From assembly GCA_046327955.1 (NCBI GenBank), contig JAXLXP010000006.1, positions 82,977-146,976 on the forward strand: a DNA stretch of 64,000 bases, given 5' to 3'. Source of the stretch: Candidatus Binatia bacterium. Lineage in GTDB: Bacteria; Desulfobacterota; Binatia; DP-6. Each line of letters begins with the position of its first letter. Positions within the stretch are counted from its first letter, which is position 1. Positions 7,477-44,636 of this stretch are shown piece by piece. A program made the translations under genes and the position numbers. The notes below the pieces were generated by a model. The model was not told where the DNA came from. It was given only the letters and a program-made list of their open reading frames with translations, and did no database searches.

Positions 7477-8946
7477 GTGTCACGGCAACGTCGACCGGCG
7501 TCTGCACGAGGGGGACGACAAGTGGGCCGAGTCGCAAGGATCGGGAGAGCGCTCGCTTCGACCCTTGCGGGGGTTCCCGGACCGCAGCGTGGTGGGGGTG
7601 GGTTTCCCCGCGTCCTGATCGCGCTGGGCCTGTGGCTGGCGGCCGTGCCCTGTCAGGCGTCCGTACCCCCGGCGCTCAGTCTCCCCGGCTACCCGGTGGA
7701 CGCCGCGTATGCCCACCCCGGAGTCGACAGCTTCTTCGACATCACGCTCGCCGGGGTCGGGGGAGGGTTCGACGTCGCCGACGGCACCTACACGGGGTGG
7801 TGCACGGAAGACAACGGACAGGAGAACACCTCTCCCGTGACGTTGTACTCGACGTACGACCCGGCGCTGCCCGGGAACCTCGGCGGGGTGCCCTGGGACC
7901 GGGTCAACTACCTCCTGAACCACAAGCAGGGTGACTGGCAGGAGGTGCAGGCGGCGCTCTGGATGGTCATCTGGGGCGCATCGAACCTCTATCCCGTGAC
8001 GCCCACGGCTCAGGCGATGATCGACGACGCGGCGGCCAATGGCCCCGGGTTCGCGCCCGGAACGGGCGAGATCATCGCCGTCGTCCTGTACACGGGCGAC
8101 GCCGGCATCGCGCCCGAGGGCTTCCAGGATACGGTGATCGAGGTGCCGGTCCCCGTGGTGACGACCACCACCATCACGACGTCGACGACCACCTCGACCA
8201 CCACCAGCACGACCACCACGTCGACCACGAGCACCACCACGACCACCCGCCCGCCGGACACCTTCCAGTGCTACGAGGTCGACGACGAGCCATTCGCCAG
8301 ACAGGTGAGCCTCGACGATCGCTACGGGACCGGCACGGTCGGGCTGCGCAAGGCCTGGCGTCTGTGCAATCCCGCCGGTACCAGCCAGCCGGATCCCCAG
8401 GTGCCGACGCGCATCGAGCACCTGGTCGGATACGCGATCGACCAGACGACTTTCCAGCGTCGGAACGACGTGCACGTGACCCCGCTGCTGAGCCAGTTCC
8501 CTCCGACCACGGTCGACTTGGTGCGGCCCGACGTGATGATGGTCCCGTCCGCGAAGAGTCTCGATGCGCCGCCGGGACCGCTCACGGATCCGGCGATCGA
8601 TCACTTCAAGTGCTACCGCGTCCGGGGAAGGCTCGGCTGGCAGCCGGTCGGCAACGTCACGATCAAGGACGAGTTCACCGACTTCGTGAACCTCAATGGT
8701 GACGGGACGCTGCACGTCGACGTGCGGATTCCGTTCCGGCTCTGTGTGGCTGCCGACAAGAACCATGAGGGGGTTCGCGGGCCCGACGACGCCTTCATGT
8801 GCTACCGGGTACGTGTCACTGCCGGAACGGACACGTTCCGCGGGCCCGACACCTCGGTCTTCGTGGACAACCAGTTCGGGGCCGCCACCTTCGAGAACGT
8901 CCGCCACCTGCGGGAGTTCTGCGTGCGGTCCGCCGTCACGCCCTGA
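7477..8946 (+). CDS. Secreted protein: N-terminal domain, Thr/Ser-rich linker, three C-terminal FxCY...C repeats (hypothetical)
   Basis: Signal-peptide-like LIALGLWLAAVPCQA; in-frame GTG at 7522 is an alternative start; linker TTTTITTSTTTSTTTSTTTTSTTSTTTTT; three repeats with (F/H)xCYxV motif. Confidence 0.55.
   Translation: MSRQRRPASARGGRQVGRVARIGRALASTLAGVPGPQRGGGGFPRVLIALGLWLAAVPCQASVPPALSLPGYPVDAAYAHPGVDSFFDITLAGVGGGFDVADGTYTGWCTEDNGQENTSPVTLYSTYDPALPGNLGGVPWDRVNYLLNHKQGDWQEVQAALWMVIWGASNLYPVTPTAQAMIDDAAANGPGFAPGTGEIIAVVLYTGDAGIAPEGFQDTVIEVPVPVVTTTTITTSTTTSTTTSTTTTSTTSTTTTTRPPDTFQCYEVDDEPFARQVSLDDRYGTGTVGLRKAWRLCNPAGTSQPDPQVPTRIEHLVGYAIDQTTFQRRNDVHVTPLLSQFPPTTVDLVRPDVMMVPSAKSLDAPPGPLTDPAIDHFKCYRVRGRLGWQPVGNVTIKDEFTDFVNLNGDGTLHVDVRIPFRLCVAADKNHEGVRGPDDAFMCYRVRVTAGTDTFRGPDTSVFVDNQFGAATFENVRHLREFCVRSAVTP
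8158..8247 (+). repeat. Thr-codon (ACC/ACG)-rich low-complexity coding repeat (linker)
   Basis: Runs of acgacc/accacc codons; similar low-complexity DNA occurs in 40311-40775. Confidence 0.6.
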
Positions 8947-10203: not shown

Positions 10204-10800
10204 TCACGTGAGATAGACCAGCGGGAACAGGAAGATCCACACGACGTCGACGAAGTGCCAGTAGAGACCGGCATACTCGACGCGATGCTGGACCTTCGCC
10301 CAGGTGGTGGGGCTTCCCGCCGCGATGGCGAGGCAGAGGTTGACGATCACTCCGCCGAGCACGTGCAGCCCGTGCAGCCCCGTCATCAGGTAGTAGTACG
10401 ACCAGAAGAGCCCGCTCGAAGGGAGAATCCCATGGCGGATCTCACCCGAGTACTCGTATCCCTTGTTGCAGAGGAAGAGCAGGCCGAATGCGACCGTGAC
10501 GAACAGGAAGCGCTGCGCCCGCTTGCGATTCCCGGCCGAGACCGCCGCGTGCGCCTCGACGATCGTGAAGCTGCTGGTCACGAGGATCAACGTGTTGATC
10601 GCCGCCAGGCGCGTGTTGACGTGGGACATCTCCTGTTCCCACCCGCCCGAGGCGAATCGCGAGAGGATGAAGCTGCCGAGCAGTCCGCCGAAGACCATGA
10701 TCTCGGAGGCCAGGAACCACCACATCCCGGCCCGACCGAACGGAAGATCGGCGAGACGTTCGCCCTCCCCGTTCCCGTGCCCTGCTGCCGCTGCCTGCAT
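10204..10800 (-). CDS. ctaE: Cytochrome c oxidase subunit III
   Basis: 198 aa; strong AGGAGG RBS before ATG at 10800; conserved subunit III motifs (LHGLHVLGG, YWHFVDVVWIFLFPLVY). Confidence 0.85.
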   Translation of the reverse strand: MQAAAAGHGNGEGERLADLPFGRAGMWWFLASEIMVFGGLLGSFILSRFASGGWEQEMSHVNTRLAAINTLILVTSSFTIVEAHAAVSAGNRKRAQRFLFVTVAFGLLFLCNKGYEYSGEIRHGILPSSGLFWSYYYLMTGLHGLHVLGGVIVNLCLAIAAGSPTTWAKVQHRVEYAGLYWHFVDVVWIFLFPLVYLT

Positions 10801-10811
10801 GTGCTTTCCTC

Positions 10812-12557
10812 CTAGACGGCAGGCGCGCCTTCGGGCGCGGTCTGCGGGATCCAATCGGCTGTCTTGCCGGGTACGCTGTACTCGTACGGGTCGCGGTACA
10901 CCGTCGGTGTCGTCTTGAAGTTCCCATGGGGCGGTGGGGACGAGGTTGCCCACTCGAGGGTGTTGGCCTGCCACGGGTTGTCCGGAGCCTTTTCGCCGGC
11001 GAGCAGGCTCCACGCGATGTTCACGAACAGGATCACCTGCGAGACGATCAGGACGATGGCGGCGATCGTCACGAACTGATGGATGGGCTGCATCGGCTTG
11101 AGGTAGTCGAATTGGTAGGGGTTGTAGATGCGACGATGGTGCCCGCCCAGGCCGACCGCGAAGAGCGGGATGAACACGAGATTGAACGAGATCATGGTGA
11201 GCCAGAAGTGCAGCTTCCCGAGGCGCTCGTTCAGCATGCGGCCGGTCATCTTCGGGAACCAGAAGTAGAGACCGGCGAGACCGCCGAGGATCGCCGAGGG
11301 GAAGAGCGTGTAGTGAAAATGCGCCAGCACGAAGTACGTGTCGTGCAGGTAGATGTCGGCCGCTGCCGCGCCGAGCGGGATGCCCGTGACCCCGCCGATC
11401 AGGAAGCTCGCCAGGGTGCCGACCGCGAACAGCATCGGCGTGGCGAACGTGATCGAGGCCCGCCAGAGGGTGGCGATCATGCTGAAGATCATCACCGCGA
11501 ACGGCACGGAGATGAGGATGGTGGTGACGCTGAAGGGCACCGCCAGCCGCGCGTCGATACCGCTCACGAACATGTGGTGGGCCCAGACGACGAAGCTGAG
11601 GGCTCCGGCGGTGATGGTCGACCAGACGATCGCCCGGTAGCCGAAGATCGGCTTGCGGGAGAACACCGGCAGGATCTCCATGATGGCCCCGAACCCGGGC
11701 AGCAGGATGACGTAGACCTCCGGATGGCCGAAGAACCAGAAGAGGTGCTGCCACAGCAGCGGGTCGCCGCCGCGCTCGGGGAGGAAGAATCCCGTGCCGA
11801 TCGTGCGGTCGAGGAGCAGCATGACCGCGCCGGCGACGAGTGGCCCGACCGACAGCATGAAGAGCACCGCGGCCGTGAGCTGCAGCCACACCATGAGGGG
11901 GAGGCGCATGAGGCTCATCCCCGGGGCGCGCATGTTGACGGCCGTCACGAGGAAGTTGACGCCGCCCATGAGGAACGACGCGAACTCGAGTGCGAGGGCC
12001 AGCAGCCAGAGGTTCCCGCCCCAGTTGACGCCCGTGTACTGCGGATCGGCCGAGAGCGGCGGATACCCGGTCCAGCCGGCCGCCGCGGGGCCGCCGGGGA
12101 CGAAGAAGGACGAGAGCAGCACGAGCGACGCCGTGCCGAGCGTCCAGACCGACATCATGTTGAGCCGCGGGAACGCCATGTCCGGCGCACCCACCATCAG
12201 CGGGATGAGGAAGTTGCCGAACGCCCCCAGGAGGATCGGCATGGCCGCGAAGAACACCATGATGGTGCCGTGCATGGTGACCACGGCGTTGTAGAAATCG
12301 GGCGGGACGACCCCGCCGAACATGGTCGGCTCCGGCACCCAGGAGAAGCCCGGTACGGGAGTCTCGGGCCAGGCGAGCTGCCAGCGGATCAGATAGGCTC
12401 CGATGGCGCCCACGGAAGCCATGAACATCCCGATGCCCAGGTACTGCTTCCCGATGACCTTGTGGTCGACGGAGAAGATGTACTTGCCGAGGAAGCTCGT
12501 CGGCTCGGCGTGCTCCATGTGATGGGTGTGCGATTCGGCTGGTGCGTGCATGCTCAT
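10812..12557 (-). CDS. ctaD: Cytochrome c oxidase subunit I
   Basis: 581 aa from ATG 12557 (GGGAG RBS); heme-copper oxidase signatures (WFFGHPEVY, HHMF, YLHDTYFVLAHFH). Confidence 0.95.
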   Translation of the reverse strand: MSMHAPAESHTHHMEHAEPTSFLGKYIFSVDHKVIGKQYLGIGMFMASVGAIGAYLIRWQLAWPETPVPGFSWVPEPTMFGGVVPPDFYNAVVTMHGTIMVFFAAMPILLGAFGNFLIPLMVGAPDMAFPRLNMMSVWTLGTASLVLLSSFFVPGGPAAAGWTGYPPLSADPQYTGVNWGGNLWLLALALEFASFLMGGVNFLVTAVNMRAPGMSLMRLPLMVWLQLTAAVLFMLSVGPLVAGAVMLLLDRTIGTGFFLPERGGDPLLWQHLFWFFGHPEVYVILLPGFGAIMEILPVFSRKPIFGYRAIVWSTITAGALSFVVWAHHMFVSGIDARLAVPFSVTTILISVPFAVMIFSMIATLWRASITFATPMLFAVGTLASFLIGGVTGIPLGAAAADIYLHDTYFVLAHFHYTLFPSAILGGLAGLYFWFPKMTGRMLNERLGKLHFWLTMISFNLVFIPLFAVGLGGHHRRIYNPYQFDYLKPMQPIHQFVTIAAIVLIVSQVILFVNIAWSLLAGEKAPDNPWQANTLEWATSSPPPHGNFKTTPTVYRDPYEYSVPGKTADWIPQTAPEGAPAV

Positions 12558-36338: not shown

Positions 36339-37211
36339 CTACGAGCCGACGAGGCGGTCGAGGTGGCGGCGGGTGTCGTCGGAGCCCCGCGTGGGCATCG
36401 ATACGACGAGCCGGTCGGCACCGGCGTCGCGGTAGGCGGCCTGCGTGGCCCGGTCGGGCATCATGTCGAGCGCCGCGTCTTCCATCCCCGGCGGTGCGCC
36501 GATCATGACCGTGATCGAGATGTGCCGCGGGTCGCGCCCGGCCTCGCGTGCGAGGCGGTCGAGGTTGGCGCGTGCCTCGCGCAGGCCATCGGGGGAGAGG
36601 GCGATCGGCATCCACCCGTCGCCCCAGGCGGCGACGCGGCCGAGCGCGTTGGGGCCCATGCCGCCGATGATGACCGGCGGGTGGGGTTTCTGCACCGGCC
36701 GCGGCCGGCAGACCGCGGCCGGGAACCGGATCCATTTTCCCGTGAAGGCCGGGGCGTCCTCGGTCCAGAGCGTGCGCATGGCGGCGACGGCCTCGCGCAT
36801 GAAGCCGAAGCGGTAGGGGAAGTGCGGCGTGAACAGGTCCATCTCCTCCCTGAGCCAGCCGGCGCCGATGCCGAACAGCAGCCGGCCCCCCGAGAGCCAG
36901 TCGAGGCTCGCGACCTGGTGGGCGAGCATGATCGGGTCGCGCTCGGGTACGAGGCAGATGCCGGTGCCGACCTTGAGGCGCGTCGTCACCGCCGCGGCCG
37001 CGGCGAGCACGGCGAACTGGTCGGGTAGCTCCGTGTAGGGCCGCGGGAGCTTGCCGTCGGAAGAGAGCGGGTAGCGTGTCTCGTAGTCGCGCGGGACGAC
37101 CGGGTGCTCGGGGACCCAGAGCGACTCGAGTCCGCGCTCCTCGCAGGCACGAGCGAGCTCCGTGACGGGGAGCGCGCGCTCCGTGACGAACATGAGCACG
37201 CCGACGTCCAT
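36339..37211 (-). CDS. Luciferase-like monooxygenase family (LLM class, possibly F420-dependent) oxidoreductase
   Basis: 290 aa; TIM-barrel LLM motifs LESLWVPEH, LFGIGAGW. Confidence 0.75.
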   Translation of the reverse strand: MDVGVLMFVTERALPVTELARACEERGLESLWVPEHPVVPRDYETRYPLSSDGKLPRPYTELPDQFAVLAAAAAVTTRLKVGTGICLVPERDPIMLAHQVASLDWLSGGRLLFGIGAGWLREEMDLFTPHFPYRFGFMREAVAAMRTLWTEDAPAFTGKWIRFPAAVCRPRPVQKPHPPVIIGGMGPNALGRVAAWGDGWMPIALSPDGLREARANLDRLAREAGRDPRHISITVMIGAPPGMEDAALDMMPDRATQAAYRDAGADRLVVSMPTRGSDDTRRHLDRLVGS

Positions 37212-37289
37212 CGAATCCTACTAGCCGCGGCCGCCGACCCGACGCAAGCCCGGCTCGCGCGGCTGCGTCGCGTCGGCTATCAGGGATGG

Positions 37290-38585
37290 ATGCGGATTGT
37301 GCTGCTCGCGATGCTGCTGCTCGTGCCCGCCCGTGCCCCCGCCGAAGACGGTCTCGCTCCCGGGACCGTGCTCGATGCGGAGCACGCCCCGGCCGCGCAG
37401 AACCTGCTCCCGCCCGAGACGCTCGCGCACTATCAGGCGGGTGAGTACCGTAACGCGATCGCGGCGTGGCCCGCGACACCACCGTGGGAGCCCGCGTTCG
37501 GCGAGGCGAGCGCCAAGAACGCGGGACGGCTGTCGCTCGACGAGAAGGGGACGATCGTCGAGGGCGGCAAGCCGGCGCGCGGTCTCTACGGACTGCCCTT
37601 CAAGGTCGATCCCACCGATGCGCAGGCCGGGCTCGCGGTGATCTGGAACGCGTACTATGCCATCTGGCGCAACGTGAGCACCCACGACGTCGTCGAGCTC
37701 GACTGGATCGGGCGCAAGGGGATCGAGCGGCAGGCGGTGCTCGAGAGCCGCACCCTCTACTACGAGGGGGTGCCACCCGCGCGTGCGCCGAAGAAGAACG
37801 ACCTCGACCTCGCGGCGCAGCAGTTCGCGCTCGTGACGTCGCCGGCGGACCTCAACGGGACGGCCACGCTGCAATGGCGCTTCCGCGATCCGCGACGGCA
37901 GGACCAGTCGTGGACCTACATCCCCGCGCTCAAGCGGGTGCGGCAGGTCTCGCCCGTCAACCGCTCCGACGGGTTCCTCGGCTCCGACCTCTCGCAGGAC
38001 GACGGTTCGTTCTTCGACGGCAAGCCGGAGGACTTCGTCTGGAAGCTCGTGGGCGAGCGCGAGCAGCTCGTGCTCGCCGACCCCGTGAGTCTCGCCAGCA
38101 AGGTCGTCCGGCAGGGCAAGCCCGACGGGGCGATCGAGGAGAGCTGGCCCGTGGGGCAGAAGGTCGTGGGCTACCAGGACCCGGCCTGGCGCGGCCTCGC
38201 ATGGGCGCCGGTGGCGCCGGTGCTGGTCCAGCGCAAGCTCTGGGTGGTCGAGGCACAGCCGCGCGACCCCAACTATCTCTTCCACAAGATCGAGATCGGC
38301 ATCGACCAGGAGACCTTCCAGGGCGCCACGAGCCGCAAGTTCGACGCCCAGGGGGCGCAGCTGCGCAGCCTCACCTTCCTCCTCTACGCGAGCCAGCCGA
38401 TCGAGGCTGGGGGCGAGAAGCTGATCTTCTCGGCGTCGTCGATGGGGTACATCGGTGCGGAGAACCTGAAGGCGAACCGGGCCACGGTGGTGGGGACCGT
38501 TCCGCCCGGCGCACCGATCCACGTGCGGCGCGGGTCCACGGATCCCGACGTCTTCGCGCTCGAACGGCTCGGCGCGGGGAAGTGA
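37290..38585 (+). CDS. DUF1329-family secreted protein (LolA-like fold)
   Basis: 431 aa from ATG 37290; signal peptide MRIVLLAMLLLVPARAPA; WTYIPALKRVRQVSP resembles the family's conserved LRRVRR segment. Confidence 0.55.
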   Translation: MRIVLLAMLLLVPARAPAEDGLAPGTVLDAEHAPAAQNLLPPETLAHYQAGEYRNAIAAWPATPPWEPAFGEASAKNAGRLSLDEKGTIVEGGKPARGLYGLPFKVDPTDAQAGLAVIWNAYYAIWRNVSTHDVVELDWIGRKGIERQAVLESRTLYYEGVPPARAPKKNDLDLAAQQFALVTSPADLNGTATLQWRFRDPRRQDQSWTYIPALKRVRQVSPVNRSDGFLGSDLSQDDGSFFDGKPEDFVWKLVGEREQLVLADPVSLASKVVRQGKPDGAIEESWPVGQKVVGYQDPAWRGLAWAPVAPVLVQRKLWVVEAQPRDPNYLFHKIEIGIDQETFQGATSRKFDAQGAQLRSLTFLLYASQPIEAGGEKLIFSASSMGYIGAENLKANRATVVGTVPPGAPIHVRRGSTDPDVFALERLGAGK

Positions 38586-38601: not shown

Positions 38602-39072
38602 TCAGGCGAGCCGGCGGTAGCGTCCCTGGAAGTAGAGCAGCGGGTCGCCGCCGGTCGCGCTCGCATGCGTGACCTCGCCGACGTGGATCACGTGGTCACC
38701 ACCCTCGTGCGTCTGGACGATGCGGCACTCGAGGTGCGCGAGACAGCCGTCGAGGAGTGGGGCTCCCAGGCGTCCTGCGCGGTGGGCGACGTCGGCGAAC
38801 TTGTCGCCGCCCGACCTGGCGAAGCGGGTCGAGAGGTCCTCCTGAGTCGCGGCGAGGACGTTCACCGCGAAGCACCGGGAGGCGTAGAAGTGCGCGAAGC
38901 TCTCCGCCTTGCGGTCGACGCAGACGAGCAGCAGCGGCGGGGAGAGCGAGACCGAGGTCACCGAGTTCGCCGTGAGCCCGTGGGCGCCACCGCGGCCGTC
39001 GTGCGTGGTGACGACCGTGACGCCGGTGGCGAAGTGCCCCATCACGCGGCGTAGCTCCTGCGCCTCGACCAT
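38602..39072 (-). CDS. NAD(P)H-flavin reductase (HpaC-like flavin reductase domain)
   Basis: 156 aa from ATG 39072; VMGHFATGVTVVTT, LTANSVTSVSLSPPLLLVCV. Confidence 0.8.
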   Translation of the reverse strand: MVEAQELRRVMGHFATGVTVVTTHDGRGGAHGLTANSVTSVSLSPPLLLVCVDRKAESFAHFYASRCFAVNVLAATQEDLSTRFARSGGDKFADVAHRAGRLGAPLLDGCLAHLECRIVQTHEGGDHVIHVGEVTHASATGGDPLLYFQGRYRRLA

Positions 39073-39125
39073 GGCGGTCGGACTTACTGCCCGCCGCCGA
39101 GCGCTGTCAACGCCACGCTCGGTGC

Positions 39126-39151
39126 GGGGCCGGGAGGGGATTCCCGGCCCC
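39126..39151 (-). terminator. Perfect 10-bp GC-rich hairpin (GGGGCCGGGA-ggggat-TCCCGGCCCC) 10 nt downstream of the large secreted-protein gene
   Basis: Read directly; no U-tract, as is common in high-GC genomes. Confidence 0.4.
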
Positions 39152-39161
39152 GCGGCCGGCG

Positions 39162-41636
39162 TCACGGGAGCAGTGACATGTCGGTCACGAGCGAGAGCCC
39201 GCCGGGTCCGGGCAGGCCTGCCACCGGGTCGATGGTGAGGCTCACACTGCCGATGCAGAACGTCGAGGCGACCGTGACCTCGCTGGCCGCACTGCCGAGC
39301 CCACTGGCCGACGGGGTGCCGCCCTGCTTGATCGTGCGCGCGAGCTTGTGCCCGAACGCTCCGACCTTCTGGCTCGTCTGACCCGAACAGAAGAGGCCGG
39401 TCGTCGACGTCTTCGACGTCGTCCCGGTGGTGAGCGGGTTGAGGGCGATCGGCAAGGGTGCCTGGAAGGCACCGTCGGACGGACAGTCGACGCTCGGCTT
39501 GTTGGCCGTGACGCCGTCGTTGAAGACGCATGACAGCCCCGACCGTGGGCCGCGGCTGCACTGGTTGGCCGCGGTGCAGACTGGGCAGGGAACCGCCACG
39601 TTGCCGGTCAGGTAGACGCGCGACTGGAGGGTGACGTTGAGGGTCACCGTCCCGCTCGCCGTCGTGTCGGCGGTGCCCGAGCTGTCGGTCTCGATGCCGT
39701 TCACGACACAGGTGGAGAGGGCCGGGTTGCCGGGGTTCGGAATCGGGAGCGGGGGCCCGAAGTAGCAGTTGATGTCCGGCTGGCACCCCTTGCCGAAGTT
39801 GCCGCAGTCCGCGTCGGTGGTGCAGACGGCGCCCGCGTTCGCTTGATTGAGGCAGTGCCTGGCAGGGCCCGTCCCGAGCGTGCAGTTCTTGTTGGCTCCG
39901 CCGACCGGGTAGACGTTGAACCCGGTCGTCGTGCCGACACCGGCGTTCGGCCCGAGTGTGAGGGTCGTGCCGTTCTGCTGGGTGATCGTGAAATACTGGC
40001 TCGATCCCGTCGGAATCGGCCCACCCGGGACGGCCGTATTGCTGCCGCCGCCGAGGTACAGACAGCCCCTTCCGAGGTCGCTCAGCTTGCCGTTGGTCGC
40101 GTTGTCGATCTCGCCGGAGAACGGCGGCGCCGGCGGCGGGCCGAGCGTGGTTCCGCACACTCCGCTCGTTCCGCAGTCCGCTCCCGTGGTGCAGGCGCCG
40201 AGCCCGTTGGTGCCGCCCAGATTGCTACCGCCCGTGCAGTGGACGTTCAGGGCCGGGCCGCCGCAGCTCGACGTTCCTGGTTTGAGCGTCATCTTGAGCT
40301 TGCTGAACCCGATCGTGGTGGTCGTCGTCGGGGTCGTGGTGGTGGTCGTGGTCGGAAGCGTCGTGGTGGTCGTCACGATCGTCGTGGACGTCGTCGTCGG
40401 AACCGTGGTGGTCGTCGTGGCGATCGTGGTGGAGGTGGTCGTCGGGATCGTGGTGGTCGTCGTGGCGAGGGTGGTCGTGGTGGTCGTCGGCAGCGTGGTC
40501 GTGGTGGTGACGACGGTGGTGGAGGTGGTCGTCGGAATCGTGGTCGTCGTCGGCGCCACGCACGTGCAGGCGATGCAGGCATCTCCCTCCGGGCAGTTGC
40601 CGAGGATCGCGCCGCCCGCGGACGTGTCGCACTGCTCGCCCTGGTCGAGCTTGCCGTTGCCGCAGAGGGGAATCGTGGTCGTGGTGGTGGCGATGGTCGT
40701 GCTGGTCGTCGCCAGGGTCGTCGTGGTGGTGGCGATCGTCGTCGACGTCGTGGTCGTGACCGTCGGGAGGCCCCTCACGTAGGCGCGGTCGGCGCTCACG
40801 ATGTCCCCCACGACCCGCCCGCGCACGTGCGACTCTTTGCCGAGGCCGACGAGCGCGTGCGGCGCACAGATGATGCCGTCGAGCTGGGCGCGTTTGGAGA
40901 CGCGGACCCGCTCGCCGCGAACGAGGAACTCGACGTTGCGCGGGTCGGTGCCCGAGGACGGCGACGCGCCGGCGAACGCCTCGTTGAACACCTCGAGGTC
41001 GCCGGTGATGAACACCTGCGCCGCGCTGTCGACGAGGAGCTGCGCGCCGCGGGCCAGCCGGAGGTTGCAAAAGACATACGTGCCGCCCGAGAGGCGGAGG
41101 GTGCCGGCGTTGGCGTCGCCGCTGCCGAGCACGAGGACGTCGCTACGGAGCGTCGGTGAGGTCGAGGAGCCGCCGCCGATCGTCTGGAACCCATTGTGCC
41201 CGACCGTGACCGGGGCCCCGCCGCAGTTGGGGAACTGCCGCGGAAAGCCGCAGGCGTCGCCGAGATCGGCGACGAGCGGATCGATCAGGCCGCCGGGCAT
41301 GGCGGGGCAGGCCGCCTGCGTCTCGATCACCTGGCCCGCAAAGAGCCCGCCGCACCGTGACCCGCGGCCGAGCCGCGCGATCTTGGCGACGACGTCCTGC
41401 GCGTGGGCGTCGAGCTTGCCGTGCGTGAGCGCCGAGCCGCTGTTCACCCGAAGCCCGCCCTCGTCGACGTCGAAGAAGCCCTTCGTCCGCACGAGCTGGC
41501 CGGCGAGAACCGCGTAGTCGGCCGGAGCCCGGCTCGGCCGCGGGGCCGCCGTGCGAGCCGGTGGCGCGAACGCGAGCGCTCCTGCCATGATGGCTAGCAA
41601 GCTGCCGACGATCGCGTAGCGCGTGCCTGATCTCAT
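39162..41636 (-). CDS. Large secreted protein (824 aa): N-terminal domain, myxobacterial Cys-rich repeat flanked by Thr-rich tandem linkers, C-terminal Gly/Cys-rich domain
   Basis: ATG 41636 with GGAGGG RBS; signal peptide MRSGTRYAIVGSLLAIMAGALAFA; LCGNGKLDQGEQCDTSAGG matches TIGR02232-type repeat; about five imperfect 17-aa TTTTT(L/I/V)PTTTSTT(I/V)(A/V) units. Confidence 0.7.
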   Translation of the reverse strand: MRSGTRYAIVGSLLAIMAGALAFAPPARTAAPRPSRAPADYAVLAGQLVRTKGFFDVDEGGLRVNSGSALTHGKLDAHAQDVVAKIARLGRGSRCGGLFAGQVIETQAACPAMPGGLIDPLVADLGDACGFPRQFPNCGGAPVTVGHNGFQTIGGGSSTSPTLRSDVLVLGSGDANAGTLRLSGGTYVFCNLRLARGAQLLVDSAAQVFITGDLEVFNEAFAGASPSSGTDPRNVEFLVRGERVRVSKRAQLDGIICAPHALVGLGKESHVRGRVVGDIVSADRAYVRGLPTVTTTTSTTIATTTTTLATTSTTIATTTTTIPLCGNGKLDQGEQCDTSAGGAILGNCPEGDACIACTCVAPTTTTIPTTTSTTVVTTTTTLPTTTTTTLATTTTTIPTTTSTTIATTTTTVPTTTSTTIVTTTTTLPTTTTTTTPTTTTTIGFSKLKMTLKPGTSSCGGPALNVHCTGGSNLGGTNGLGACTTGADCGTSGVCGTTLGPPPAPPFSGEIDNATNGKLSDLGRGCLYLGGGSNTAVPGGPIPTGSSQYFTITQQNGTTLTLGPNAGVGTTTGFNVYPVGGANKNCTLGTGPARHCLNQANAGAVCTTDADCGNFGKGCQPDINCYFGPPLPIPNPGNPALSTCVVNGIETDSSGTADTTASGTVTLNVTLQSRVYLTGNVAVPCPVCTAANQCSRGPRSGLSCVFNDGVTANKPSVDCPSDGAFQAPLPIALNPLTTGTTSKTSTTGLFCSGQTSQKVGAFGHKLARTIKQGGTPSASGLGSAASEVTVASTFCIGSVSLTIDPVAGLPGPGGLSLVTDMSLLP
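40311..40556 (-). repeat. Imperfect tandem ~51-nt repeats encoding a Thr-rich linker
   Basis: Repeated gtcgtggtggtcgtc...ggaaccgtggtg units read directly. Confidence 0.65.
40666..40775 (-). repeat. Second Thr-rich linker-coding low-complexity repeat
   Basis: Encodes TVTTTTSTTIATTTTTLATTSTTIATTTTTIP. Confidence 0.6.
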
Positions 41637-41843
41637 CCTGCCCTCCACGAGACGGGTCGGTGCCCTCCGACCCCGCCCATTGCTGAGCAAAATCCGTAAC
41701 ACGCTGGCCAAGCGAAGGGAAGCCAAAAGCCGCGGCCCGGCGCGGGTTTCGTCGTGCGCCTGGGCAAGAACTGCCGCGCGGGGTGGCGATTCTGCAAGGG
41801 CCTGCCCGAGTGGCCGCGATGTTGCGCGGATGCGGCACCTGCC

Positions 41844-44636
41844 ATGTATACTCCGCCGGCGATGAATGGGTTCGCCCGCCGGCTCGTCCGGCATCCGGCG
41901 ACCGTCCTCGTGGCGGCCGGTCTCGTGACGGCCCTCCTCGGGGTTGCGGCCTCCCGCATCCGCGTCGAGAGCTCGCTCGAGAGCGTGCTCGCCGCGGGGG
42001 ACCCCGAAGCGGACTACTACGCGCGGGTCCGCAGCCTCTTCGGCGGCGACGACGTGGCGGTGGTCGGCGTGCTCGCCGACGACGTGCTCGCGCCAGCGAC
42101 CCTCGAGAAGATGGCGCGGGTCACCGACGCGCTGGCGAAGATTCCGGGCGTCGAGCGCGTGATGAGCCTGACCAATGCCGTCGATCCGGCTGCCGACGTG
42201 GTGGCGCCGCCACGGTTGCTGCCGCGCATCCCGCCGACGCCGGACGACACCGCCGCGGTGCGGCAAAAACTCGCGGCCACTCCCCTCTACCGCAAGAACC
42301 TCGTGGCCGACGACCTCCGTGGCGCGGCGATCAACGTCGTCTTCCGTCCGCTGACCGACGCCGAGTACCACGATCGCGGCATCGACGCGGCGATCATGCG
42401 CGTGCTGGCCGCGGAGCCGGGGCCCGAGCGGTTCCTCTACACCGGGGCGGCGCACGTGAAGCAGGCGGCGGTGACCCTCATGCAGGAGGACCTGCTGCGG
42501 TTCACGCCGTGGGCGCTCGGCCTGGTCGCCGCCGTGCTCGGGCTCGCCTTCCGGACCCGCCGCGGCGTCGTCCTCCCGCTCCTGACCGTGCTGCTCGCCG
42601 TCCTGTGGACGCTCGGCCTCATGGAGGCCACGGGCCATGCGATCACGCTCGGCACGTTCATCCTCCCGCCCCTGCTGCTCGTCGTCGGCAGCTCGTACGC
42701 GATCCACGTCATGGCGCGCTACTACGAGCAGGTGGAACGCGAGGCGCCAGCCGACGAGCTCGTGATCCGGGCCATCGAGCGCGTCTGGCCGCCGCTGGTC
42801 ATCTCGGCCTTCGCGACGGCGGTCGGATTCGGCTCGCTGATGGTGAGCCGCATTCCCGCCATCTGGGAGCTCGGCTGCTTCGCGGTGGTCGGCGTGGCGT
42901 GCCTCACGGTGAGCTGCCTGACGTTTCTGCCGGCGGCGCTGGCGGCGCTCCCGGCGGAACGAACGCGGGCGCGTCGGGGAAAGGTGGGGCCCGGCCTCGC
43001 CCCGTTGCTCGCCCGACTCTCCCGGCTCGCGCACGACCGGCGTACGGCGATCTTCACGGTGGCGGTGATGCTGGCGGTGGCGGCGCTGGTCGGTATCCGG
43101 CGGATCACCGTCGACTCCGATTTCGTCGCGTACTTCACCCCGCGCTCCGAGGTGCGGCTCGCCAACGAGGCCGTCAACCAGCACATCGTGGGCAGCAATC
43201 CCTTCTACGTCGTGATCGAAGGCACCCCGGGCACGCTCAAGCGGTGGGAGGTGCTCAAGCTCGTCGAGGACCTGCAGCGGTTCCTCGACACCGTGCCGGG
43301 GATCACTTCGTCGATCTCGCTGGTCGACTACCTCGAGCTCCTCGAGGCGGGTCTCAACCGCGCCGGCGGGGAGGACCTCGTCGTCGACGAGCAGGGAAAC
43401 ATCCGCCCGGCGGAGAAGCCGAAGACGTTCTGGGAGGATCCGAAGAGCCTCGATCCCGTGCTCAAGATGGTCGCCACCAGCCCGGCCACGTTCAAGAGCG
43501 TGGTCACGGCCGATTTCTCCAAGGCATCGGTCCTGGTGCGGACGCGGCTCTCGGCCTCGCGCGCGGTCGAGGAGACGCTCGCCCGCGTGCGCGAATACGT
43601 GGCCGCGCACTTCCCGGCCGACGTCGGTGTGCGGCTCACGGGCAACCTCGTGCTGCTCACGGGGACGACCTCCGACATCGTGCGCGATCAGGTCGAGAGC
43701 CTCGGGCTCGCGCTGGGCGTCATCTTCGTCGTCCTGTCGACGATGTTCCTGTCCGGGAAGATCGGCCTGCTCGCGATCCTGCCGAACGTCCTGCCCGTGG
43801 TGCTCTTCTACGGCGTGATGGGCTGGCTCGGGATCCAGCTCAACTTCGGGACGAGCCTCATTGCCGCGATCTCGCTCGGCATCGCGGTGGACGCCACGAT
43901 CCACTACATGGCCCGGCTCAACCGCGAGCTCGCCGGGGAGATCGACCAGCGGGCCGCGATCGGCCGAGCGCTCGAGACCGTGGGCGTACCGATCATCTTC
44001 ACGACGGTGGCGCTCTTCCTGGGGTTCCTCACCTTCGCGTGCTCGAGCTTCGTGCCGATCCAGAGCTTCGGGATCCTCTCCGGCGTCACCATGGCCGCGT
44101 CGCTCGGGACGAACCTCGTCCTCCTGCCCGCGCTACTCGCCACCACGAAGATCATCACGCTCTGGGACCTCGTGGCCGTGAAGCTCGGCCGCGACCCGAC
44201 CCGCACGATCCCGCTCTTCGCCGGCCTGCGGCCGACGCAGGCGCGGGTGGTCGTGCTCATGGGCGAGATCAAGCGCTTCCGGCCCGGCGAGACCATCGTG
44301 CGCCAGGGCGATCCGGGGGACGAGATGTACGTCATTCTCGACGGGCGGACGGAAGTCTGGGTGTCGCAGGCCGACCACCGCCAGCGCATCTTCGAGCTGC
44401 GACGGGGCGACGTGTTCGGCGAGATGAGCCTGGTGCGCCGCGCCGAGCGGTCGGCCGACGTGGTGGCCGCCGACGCGGTCGAGGTGCTCGCGGTGAGTGA
44501 GCGGTTCCTCGAGCGCCTGCGCCGCCGCTACCCGCGCATCGCCTCGCGGCTCTTCCTGAACCTGACGAGTGTCCTGAGCGATCGCCTCCAGTCGATGAAT
44601 GCGCGCTTCGTCGGCCGCACCGGGACCGCCTCCTGA
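41844..44636 (+). CDS. MMPL/RND-superfamily exporter (HpnN-like, two 6-TM bundles with sterol-sensing-domain-like regions) fused to a C-terminal cyclic-nucleotide-binding (CAP_ED) domain
   Basis: 930 aa from ATG 41844 (ATG 41862 alternative); 12 predicted TMs and two large periplasmic loops; C-terminal FRPGETIVRQGDPGDEMYVILDG...GDVFGEMSLV...RSADVVA cNMP-binding signature. Confidence 0.8.
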   Translation: MYTPPAMNGFARRLVRHPATVLVAAGLVTALLGVAASRIRVESSLESVLAAGDPEADYYARVRSLFGGDDVAVVGVLADDVLAPATLEKMARVTDALAKIPGVERVMSLTNAVDPAADVVAPPRLLPRIPPTPDDTAAVRQKLAATPLYRKNLVADDLRGAAINVVFRPLTDAEYHDRGIDAAIMRVLAAEPGPERFLYTGAAHVKQAAVTLMQEDLLRFTPWALGLVAAVLGLAFRTRRGVVLPLLTVLLAVLWTLGLMEATGHAITLGTFILPPLLLVVGSSYAIHVMARYYEQVEREAPADELVIRAIERVWPPLVISAFATAVGFGSLMVSRIPAIWELGCFAVVGVACLTVSCLTFLPAALAALPAERTRARRGKVGPGLAPLLARLSRLAHDRRTAIFTVAVMLAVAALVGIRRITVDSDFVAYFTPRSEVRLANEAVNQHIVGSNPFYVVIEGTPGTLKRWEVLKLVEDLQRFLDTVPGITSSISLVDYLELLEAGLNRAGGEDLVVDEQGNIRPAEKPKTFWEDPKSLDPVLKMVATSPATFKSVVTADFSKASVLVRTRLSASRAVEETLARVREYVAAHFPADVGVRLTGNLVLLTGTTSDIVRDQVESLGLALGVIFVVLSTMFLSGKIGLLAILPNVLPVVLFYGVMGWLGIQLNFGTSLIAAISLGIAVDATIHYMARLNRELAGEIDQRAAIGRALETVGVPIIFTTVALFLGFLTFACSSFVPIQSFGILSGVTMAASLGTNLVLLPALLATTKIITLWDLVAVKLGRDPTRTIPLFAGLRPTQARVVVLMGEIKRFRPGETIVRQGDPGDEMYVILDGRTEVWVSQADHRQRIFELRRGDVFGEMSLVRRAERSADVVAADAVEVLAVSERFLERLRRRYPRIASRLFLNLTSVLSDRLQSMNARFVGRTGTAS

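Follow-up and report, generated by a model that had tools for sequence, protein, structure and literature searches.

A predicted secreted modular protein of Candidatus Binatia joining a solenoid head to an undescribed cysteine-rich C-terminal domain through threonine-rich linkers

Introduction

The Binatia (Binatota) form a phylum of worldwide distribution that is known from genomes alone, as none of its members has been cultured (PMC8262859). We analyzed a 64,000-nt stretch of the genome of an uncultured, soil-type Candidatus Binatia bacterium (assembly GCA_046327955.1, contig JAXLXP010000006.1, positions 82,977 to 146,976), hereafter called the window, and focused on a minus-strand gene at 39162-41636. 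A first-pass annotation made from the sequence had described its product as an 824-aa secreted protein with a Cys-rich repeat, Thr-rich linkers and a Gly/Cys-rich C-terminal region. Here the protein was resolved into a predicted solenoid head (N-domain), a six-Cys module placed between two Thr-rich linkers, and a C-terminal domain (C-domain) which belongs to a large family absent from Pfam, NCBIfam and PDB.

Results and Discussion

The gene and its product

The window has a G+C content of about 70% throughout and contains very long mechanical open reading frames (ORFs) on both strands. The ORF first annotated at 39162-41636 proved to be a real gene, with an ATG start and a Shine-Dalgarno GGAGG; the longer GGAGGG was also kept at an orthologous locus in a metagenome (L020, described below). 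A longer mechanical ORF extending to 43904 was rejected as a high-GC artefact, because homologues of the window protein start with equivalent signal peptides. The assignment of the Thr-rich frame to the opposite strand was also rejected, because homologues match the domains on both sides of it within one unbroken frame. The protein is identical to MFN8544229.1 (U0807_08480; P0176 in our protein set), a hypothetical protein encoded on a 327-kb contig of a Candidatus Binatia metagenome-assembled genome (MAG), and was a singleton at 90% identity in a cluster lookup. The tRNA scan and the Rfam scan (gathering threshold) of the whole 64-kb window gave zero matches. The features of the gene and its neighbours are listed in Table 1.

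The positively charged start and the following 18-residue hydrophobic stretch agreed with the signal peptide proposed in the first-pass annotation, and equivalent N-termini were found on the homologues. The protein has 32 Cys in total, with 16 conserved Cys in the C-domain, and their conserved patterns fit a non-cytoplasmic, oxidizing compartment in which the exported protein would be disulfide-bonded.

Table 1. Positions of the target gene, its domains and the neighbouring features in the window
Feature	Position	Strand	Description
Target coding sequence	39162..41636	minus	uninterrupted 824 codons and TGA stop; ATG start
Shine-Dalgarno-like GGAGGG	41641..41646	minus	4-5 nt 5' of the ATG
Putative Sec-type signal peptide, aa 1-24	41565..41636	minus	read from sequence: MRSGTR, then 18-residue hydrophobic core ending AFA
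N-domain, aa ~38-291	40764..41525	minus	6 Cys; predicted right-handed beta-solenoid of the ice-binding-protein (DUF3494/ComZ-like) fold
Thr-rich linker 1, aa 292-324	40665..40763	minus	weak 21/42-nt periodicity
Six-Cys module, aa 325-359	40560..40664	minus	LCGNGKLDQGEQCD...C...C..C.C; first half like the myxobacterial Cys-rich acidic repeat
Thr-rich linker 2, aa 360-442	40311..40559	minus	five imperfect 45-nt/15-aa units at 40320-40544
C-domain, aa 443-824	39165..40310	minus	20 Cys; predicted long-stranded beta-barrel core with Cys-rich loops; ends in motif GLPGPG..S....LP
Hairpin	39124..39153	minus	perfect 12-bp GC stem, 6-nt loop; starts 9 nt past the stop codon; imperfect arms reach 39115-39162
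Flavin reductase	38602..39072	minus	downstream, co-directional; Pfam Flavin_Reduct, E = 2.8e-47; orthologue in L020 67% identical; in conserved block
MMPL/RND-type transporter fused to C-terminal cNMP-binding domain	41754..44636	plus	assigned by Pfam; divergent neighbour; in conserved block
DUF1329/LolA-like protein	37104..38585	plus	assigned by Pfam; convergent with the flavin reductase gene; orthologue in L020 65% identical; in conserved block
Luciferase-like monooxygenase	36339..37211	minus	in conserved block

The C-domain defines a large family

A search with aa 443-824 collected 225 proteins, the best of which matched 100% of the query at E = 1.6e-88 and 51% identity. None of these relatives had a Pfam domain or any name except 'hypothetical protein', and the labelled ones came from Candidatus Binatia. 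When a profile was searched against 1.84 billion cluster representatives, 477 were matched at E <= 1e-30, 1,178 at E <= 1e-10 and 1,884 at E <= 1e-3, the last of these tiers being an upper bound because the profile held some N-terminal columns. Within the family, 16 Cys are invariant or nearly so and are accompanied by the motifs NC[YF]FGPPLP, SRVY.T, PCP.C, FC..Q, FC[IV]P and LPGPG, and the window C-domain has all of them. It also carries a subfamily-specific four-Cys insert at C-domain residues ~20-55, shared with its two closest relatives. In composition, the domain is 38% Gly+Ser+Thr and has no Trp.

The first-pass annotation had estimated the Gly/Cys-rich C-terminal region at about 420 aa. 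The domain in fact comprises 382 aa and, while it did stay unassigned in Pfam (E <= 10) and NCBIfam (E <= 1), it belongs to a large conserved family and is no idiosyncratic region. A comparison of its alignment profile with PDB sequences gave nothing meaningful and no match of CBM (carbohydrate-binding module) or CAZy-like type, and Foldseek found no match in PDB at E <= 0.001. The absence of a recognizable C-terminal sorting signal, also stated at first pass, was borne out: neither Pfam nor NCBIfam gave anything for the C-terminus, including the models of PEP-CTERM, LPXTG and the C-terminal domain of the type IX secretion system (T9SS), and the sequence has no terminal transmembrane helix followed by a basic tail.

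The distribution of the C-domain was examined in species-representative genomes with a 13-sequence alignment. Full-length copies were found in Candidatus Binatia and 'uncultured delta proteobacterium' MAGs, and partial, distant matches in MAGs of Myxococcales and Deltaproteobacteria. Two proteins of the latter MAGs, of 1,309 aa (L009, 3091-7020) and 754 aa (L013, 4723-6987), end in a diverged C-domain recognizable by NCYFGPPLPL, PCPYC, FCIPPT and GLPGPG. In the former, the diverged domain is preceded by a true TIGR02232 repeat array (33.8 bits), and the pairing of CGxG...CD repeats with the C-domain therefore spans two phyla.

Position of the C-domain in family proteins

For the analysis of domain position, 247 family proteins were collected, of which 234 contained the end of the domain. 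This end lay within 15 residues of the protein C-terminus in 220 of the 234 (94%), and within five residues in 180. The regions ahead of it fell into at least 16 unrelated clusters (beta-sandwich-like, Cys-rich helical, 'CY[KR]V' and others) and were joined to it by S/T/P-rich linkers. Pfam recognized no family in nine of ten representatives of these N-terminal partners; the tenth, P0153, gave only a sub-threshold match to DUF7305. The C-domain also stands alone behind a signal peptide (P0010, P0020 and P0030), is present in two to three tandem copies split by linkers in 14 proteins (e.g. P0146, P0147 and P0149), and is followed by more than 30 residues after its last copy in 11 proteins, as by NHL repeats in P0164. 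A local tandem expansion was seen on a 10-kb contig (GCA_016853205.1, JACXTT010015062.1; L019, 2068-9401), where four consecutive same-strand genes encode proteins of 564, 623, 530 and 563 aa, and the last three of them (P0096, P0034 and P0037) belong to the C-domain family. Across the family loci there was no conserved neighbour, except for an occasional luciferase-like monooxygenase.

Because it occurs alone, in tandem and with domains after it, the C-domain is, as judged from these sequences, an autonomous and mobile extracytoplasmic domain with a strong C-terminal preference, and not a sorting peptide. A bolder interpretation, which seems rather unlikely to us, is that the domain is the hallmark of a system for surface display or sorting that has gone unrecognized in Binatia and of which Myxococcota have a distant version. 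By the same account, and with the same doubt, it would act as a 'foot' docking dozens of secreted heads per genome on the outer surface via Thr-rich stalks. The C-terminal domains of the T9SS, the dockerins and the S-layer-homology anchors would then be analogous in role, whereas the C-domain would represent a new fold with an unnamed receptor.

Predicted fold of the C-domain

The folds of the C-domain and the N-domain were both taken from AlphaFold2 models. That of the C-domain, predicted with a pLDDT (predicted local distance difference test) of 90.3, is a barrel with strands of 10-14 residues. Eight-stranded barrels of the outer membrane (NspA, OmpA, the N-terminal domain of OprF, PagL) or of soluble ligand-binding proteins (YceI/X158, avidins, DynF, LpqH, PsbO) have no sequence relationship to it. 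In addition, about 240 of its 382 residues form extra Cys-rich loops, and its composition is unlike that of outer-membrane proteins. The model places the C-domain only in a loose structural relationship with known barrels.

Such long strands, together with a place at the C-terminus, after variable 'passengers' and linkers, in 94% of members, are what would be seen if the C-domain were an outer-membrane beta-barrel that displays a variable passenger as an autotransporter- or OmpA-like anchor or translocator. This is nevertheless highly improbable. Aromatic residues (F, W and Y) account for 4.2%, with no Trp (family mean 4.2%, range 2.8-5.5%). Among 72 members the last residue was P in 38, Q in 14, L in 6 and F in 3; the window protein itself ends in ...MSLLP, so that no aromatic beta-signal is present. 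The hydrophobic strand face is nearly invariant Leu/Val/Ile, as would suit a buried core, and the other face is up to 86% charged. The 16 conserved Cys are likewise unfavourable for a membrane barrel, as are the long Cys-rich insertions, which appear at both barrel ends according to the strand order in the model. The tandem copies lie across soluble linkers in the 14 proteins mentioned above, and 11 proteins have further domains after the last copy. In structural comparison, soluble eight-stranded barrels (YceI, avidins, DynF, LpqH and PsbO) scored about as well as membrane barrels, and the Foldseek TM-scores to porins did not exceed 0.15.

The N-domain adopts an ice-binding-protein fold in its model

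The first-pass annotation had called the fold of the N-terminal domain unknown and had named, as grounds for its own refutation, a structure prediction that assigns the domain to a well-known type. For the N-domain this was the outcome, as the model is a right-handed beta-solenoid of the IBP-1 type, that is, of the known fold of ice-binding proteins (IBPs) and ComZ. A single-sequence search with the N-domain found two proteins at E = 1e-18, and a profile search found 25, nearly all of them stand-alone secreted proteins of 281-297 aa. A metagenome scan added only three short contigs. The nearest Pfam family was DUF7305 (PF23981), which matched aa 204-284 with 21.3 bits in the whole protein and 23.1 bits in the domain alone, below the gathering score of 27, and was matched by just two of the 23 members of the N-domain family. 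NCBIfam gave no family for the N-domain, and its alignment profile matched nothing meaningful among PDB sequences. With the whole protein as query, Pfam, NCBIfam and PDB sequences yielded just the sub-threshold DUF7305 match.

IBP/ComZ-type folds work via flat binding faces and not by catalysis.

In the canonical DUF3494 fold, the first coil is followed by a long alpha-helix that lies packed along the solenoid (PMC11645318). In the N-domain model this helix is missing; DSSP assigned a lone four-residue helix (aa 125-128) inside an irregular segment at 107-142. Compared with the DUF3494 IBPs of known structure (PDB 7bwx, 3wp9, 6bg8 and 5uyt), the window head is 16-20% identical, and it differs further in having conserved Cys pairs and a Thr-linker fusion to other modules. 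The situation of a short helix or no long one is rather like that of Thermus thermophilus ComZ (PDB 6qvi; PMC6561018). In ComZ, however, the solenoid is inserted in a pilin fold, whereas the window solenoid is not inserted and has no pilin N-terminal helix, and DNA binding is not implied by the likeness. The N-domain is, from its model, of the IBP-type fold while differing from DUF3494 in sequence and in the helix; its sequence family is new, its fold known.

A true ice-binding or antifreeze domain, by which the protein would protect a soil bacterium during freeze-thaw, appears very unlikely. Non-canonical DUF3494-like proteins that are missed by Pfam can bind ice (PMC11645318), which leaves some room for this function. 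On the other hand, Pfam DUF3494 (PF11999) had no match at E <= 10 in the N-domain, nor at E <= 1 in any of the 23 family members, and the canonical flanking helix is missing. ComZ, whose solenoid resembles IBPs, binds DNA at the pilus tip and not ice (PMC6561018), and the labelled relatives came from soil-type and general metagenome MAGs rather than from icy habitats. Nothing in the window protein points to ice, and an IBP-type fold does not imply ice binding.

The six-Cys module and the Thr-rich linkers

One module with six Cys, starting with CGNGKLDQGEQCD at aa 325-337 (40626-40664 in the window), was found between the two linkers, just as the first-pass annotation had stated. This start conforms to the signature CG[DN]G..[DE].GE.CD and is shared with the myxobacterial Cys-rich acidic repeat proteins (TIGR02232 myxo_disulf_rpt/DUF4215), in which it reads CGNGxxDxGEQCD. 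The proposed TIGR02232 likeness was retained for this first half of the motif. It did not extend to the second half: the module alone scored 10.2 bits against TIGR02232 (E = 0.52; cutoff 20.8 bits; model positions 3-17 of 38) and 11.3 bits against DUF4215 (PF13948; E = 0.44; cutoff 27 bits). The TIGR02232 proteins have arrays of repeats, whereas the window protein has one module with a differing second half (C-x5-C-x2-C-x-C), which therefore reads as a related but distinct six-Cys variant of the known repeat. Modules of this type recurred in P0153, P0161, P0144 and L022.

The linkers on either side, of about 33-35 and 83-85 aa with 60-67% Thr, are of an ordinary kind and agreed with the flanking Thr-rich segments first described. 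Five imperfect tandem repeats of 51 nt, encoding 17 aa, had been reported there. Tandem Repeats Finder gave 5.3 copies with a period of 45 at 40314-40552 (81% matches, score 275, well above noise). The approximate copy number thus stood, while the unit was corrected to 45 nt and 15 aa, TT[ILV]PTTT[ST]TT[IVLT][VAP]TTT; the motif written out at first pass itself has 15 residues. The units are 69-87% identical, mix ACC and ACG codons, and share no exact DNA repeat longer than 20 nt. Because of these imperfections, the proneness to slippage assumed for the array had been overstated. The expected variation in length does hold on an evolutionary scale, as relatives were found with different linkers and with zero to three Cys modules. 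The Thr-rich stalks may plausibly be O-glycosylated. The Binatia genome carrying the window seems to make general use of Thr-rich linkers.

A second modular protein of the secreted type is encoded in the window at 7477-8946 (plus strand). Its N-terminal domain is followed by a 24-residue T/S-rich run (8176-8247), with further Thr on both flanks, and then by a domain in which the motif F.CY[ER]V is repeated. A motif of this type also lies N-terminal to the C-domain in P0015 and P0032.

Orthologues and synteny

A protein of 848 aa (P0161), encoded on a metagenome contig in ENA (L020), was identified as a positional orthologue; its gene is likewise divergent from a gene for an MMPL protein with a cNMP-binding (cyclic nucleoside monophosphate) domain. 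It is followed by genes for DUF2255, flavin reductase, DUF1329 (opposite strand), MAPEG and a luciferase-like monooxygenase, an order matched in the window by luciferase-like monooxygenase - DUF1329 - flavin reductase - target - MMPL-cNMP. The MMPL-cNMP orthologue (4973-7741 in L020) is 66% identical, and both the fusion and the divergent arrangement were kept. A second syntenic contig, from JGI (Ga0679466_0289558; L017), carries the closest C-domain, at 51% identity, with the end of an N-domain upstream in the same frame and a DUF2255 orthologue (67% identity) downstream; the synteny holds as far as this 2.1-kb contig extends. In L020 the DUF2255 gene (10565-11008) separates the target from the flavin reductase gene, and in L017 (1722-2108) it follows the target directly. 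It is absent from the window, which has instead an 89-nt spacer (39073-39161) containing the GC hairpin.

The public gene call on the JGI contig (3-575 and 580-1725) annotates the S/T/P-rich linker and the end of the N-domain as an opposite-strand ORF, with the result that its protein (P0001) is shortened and starts at the C-domain. For family members with long linkers, wrong annotation or breakage in assemblies is probably frequent.

Both positional orthologues kept the plan of head, linker and C-domain, and within this plan the architectures varied. The window protein has one Cys module with S/T-rich linkers of 35 and 85 aa, and P0161 also has one, with linkers of 44, 20 and 96 aa that contain more Ser and Pro. 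There are two modules in P0153 (linkers of 35 and 93 aa), three in L022 (30, 56, 59 and 115 aa) and none in L017, where a single linker of 128 aa is built of nine-residue TTTSTS[LR]P[PA] units. Between the window and L020, the neighbours were 65-76% identical when compared with 36% for the N-domain of the target and 44-45% for its C-domain, and the linkers could not be aligned. As these comparisons show, the stalk and the Cys-module number change freely, and the protein as a whole diverges more rapidly than the genes around it, in a pattern typical of exposed proteins.

The conserved block invites a functional link to the envelope, in which the target would be an extracytoplasmic component or cargo-handling partner in the export of lipids or hydrophobic compounds by MMPL-cNMP and DUF1329, with the C-domain binding lipid as YceI-like barrels do. 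L020 retains the block, L017 shows the synteny over the length of its contig, and the divergent arrangement with the transporter is maintained. We nevertheless judge this link unlikely. The block was found in only two or three related genomes, and shared ancestry explains the synteny because the related genomes are few and the neighbours are still 65-76% identical. Moreover, other loci of the C-domain family have no MMPL or DUF1329 neighbour, and the target lies on the opposite strand to both envelope genes.

Proposed role

The architecture is now clear and is that of a modular protein of the adhesin-like type, apparently exported and rich in disulfides, from which a function can be suggested. 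We favour, with moderate confidence, an adhesin-like extracellular or cell-surface protein with the C-domain as a shared binding or anchoring module. In this model, the protein would cross the inner membrane by the Sec pathway, become oxidized, and end up outside the cell or on its surface. The C-domain, common to about 1,900 protein clusters, would bind a shared target, for instance a constituent of the envelope of the same cell or a common substrate. The IBP/ComZ-type solenoid (~255 aa) would be the specific binding head, kept away from the target of the C-domain by an extended, possibly glycosylated Thr-rich stalk, with the small six-Cys knot sitting between the two Thr-rich spacers.

Several observations weigh against this role. 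Neither domain family includes a member with a function from experiment or annotation, and no ligand is known. In the loci examined, no secretion system, glycosyltransferase or partner gene was linked, nor was any neighbour conserved across the C-domain family loci. The signal-peptidase site is atypical; the signal peptide is presumably cleaved, at an uncertain position because Pro stands at +1 after both candidate sites, AFA and TAA. The stand-alone C-domain proteins fit a binding module without showing what is bound.

Secreted glycoside hydrolases with CBMs are classically laid out with Thr/Ser-rich linkers between a head and a conserved C-terminal module. The window protein matches this layout, and an extracellular enzyme with a beta-helix polysaccharide lyase or hydrolase as its head and a carbohydrate-binding C-domain was accordingly considered. 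It is most improbable, as the head had far stronger fold matches to the non-catalytic IBP/ComZ solenoids, the C-domain had no match of CBM or CAZy-like type, and Pfam found no family in the N-terminal partner representatives beyond the sub-threshold DUF7305 match. Other modular secreted proteins combine Ser/Thr/Pro linkers with a shared C-terminal module, such as CBM-bearing glycoside hydrolases, the Saccharophagus degradans proteins with the YceI-like X158 module (PDB 2x34) and dockerin-bearing cellulosomal proteins. The window protein differs from them in having no recognized catalytic domain and a shared module of a different, undescribed family, and the likeness to CBM-, dockerin- or X158-bearing proteins is one of analogy, not of membership.

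The window gene provides an entry point to a family of about 1,900 clusters that lacks both an entry in Pfam or NCBIfam and a relative of solved structure and is named only as 'hypothetical protein'. With its confident predicted structure and its consistent last position, the C-domain deserves a family definition and would be a first target in the surface or extracellular proteome of Binatia. The IBP-like head is another case of an 'ice-binding' fold with no tie to ice and calls for caution in annotation from fold only, while the Thr-rich linkers called as opposite-strand ORFs explain shortened genes in public metagenome annotations. The size and the regular use of the C-domain family are noteworthy to the specialist rather than startling; they overturn no current knowledge and make no long-standing question testable, and the function proposed here remains an inference.

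Hairpins and neighbouring genes

The strong hairpin reported downstream of the gene was confirmed. It is unique in the window, no shuffled sequence gave a match, and the 91-nt fold has a free energy of -61.3 kcal/mol (z = -4.5). It has the GC-rich stem-loop of a rho-independent terminator but not the U-tract (ACCGAGCGTGGCG follows the stem), and the terminator scan did not call it. A reading as a repetitive extragenic palindromic (REP)-like element was rejected because the hairpin is unique in the window. As it fills the gap where the DUF2255 gene is missing, it is not a conserved feature of the locus.

When the divergent intergenic region was aligned with that of L020, conservation was limited to short patches. 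At 41730-41745 (minus strand) in this region of the window, about 95 nt upstream of the target start, is a terminator-like hairpin, CCGCGCCGGGCCGCGG followed by CTTTTGGCTT. There is no upstream gene on the same strand that would need termination, and 1.2 such sites were expected by chance in the 3.7 kb scanned; the site may mean nothing.

The divergent gene had been described at first pass as a cNMP-gated RND (resistance-nodulation-division) exporter, and Pfam indeed assigned an MMPL/RND-type transporter with a cNMP-binding domain. The protein also has sterol-sensing-like segments. As homology starts near residue 31, the mechanical GTG start at 41754 probably lies too far upstream, with a true start more likely near 41844. 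On the other side of the target, the mechanical starts of the DUF1329 (plus strand) and luciferase-like monooxygenase (minus strand) ORFs overlap by approximately 100 nt (37104-37211). The true start of the DUF1329 protein is probably the first codon of the signal peptide MRIVLL near 37290, and a start at this position removes the overlap.

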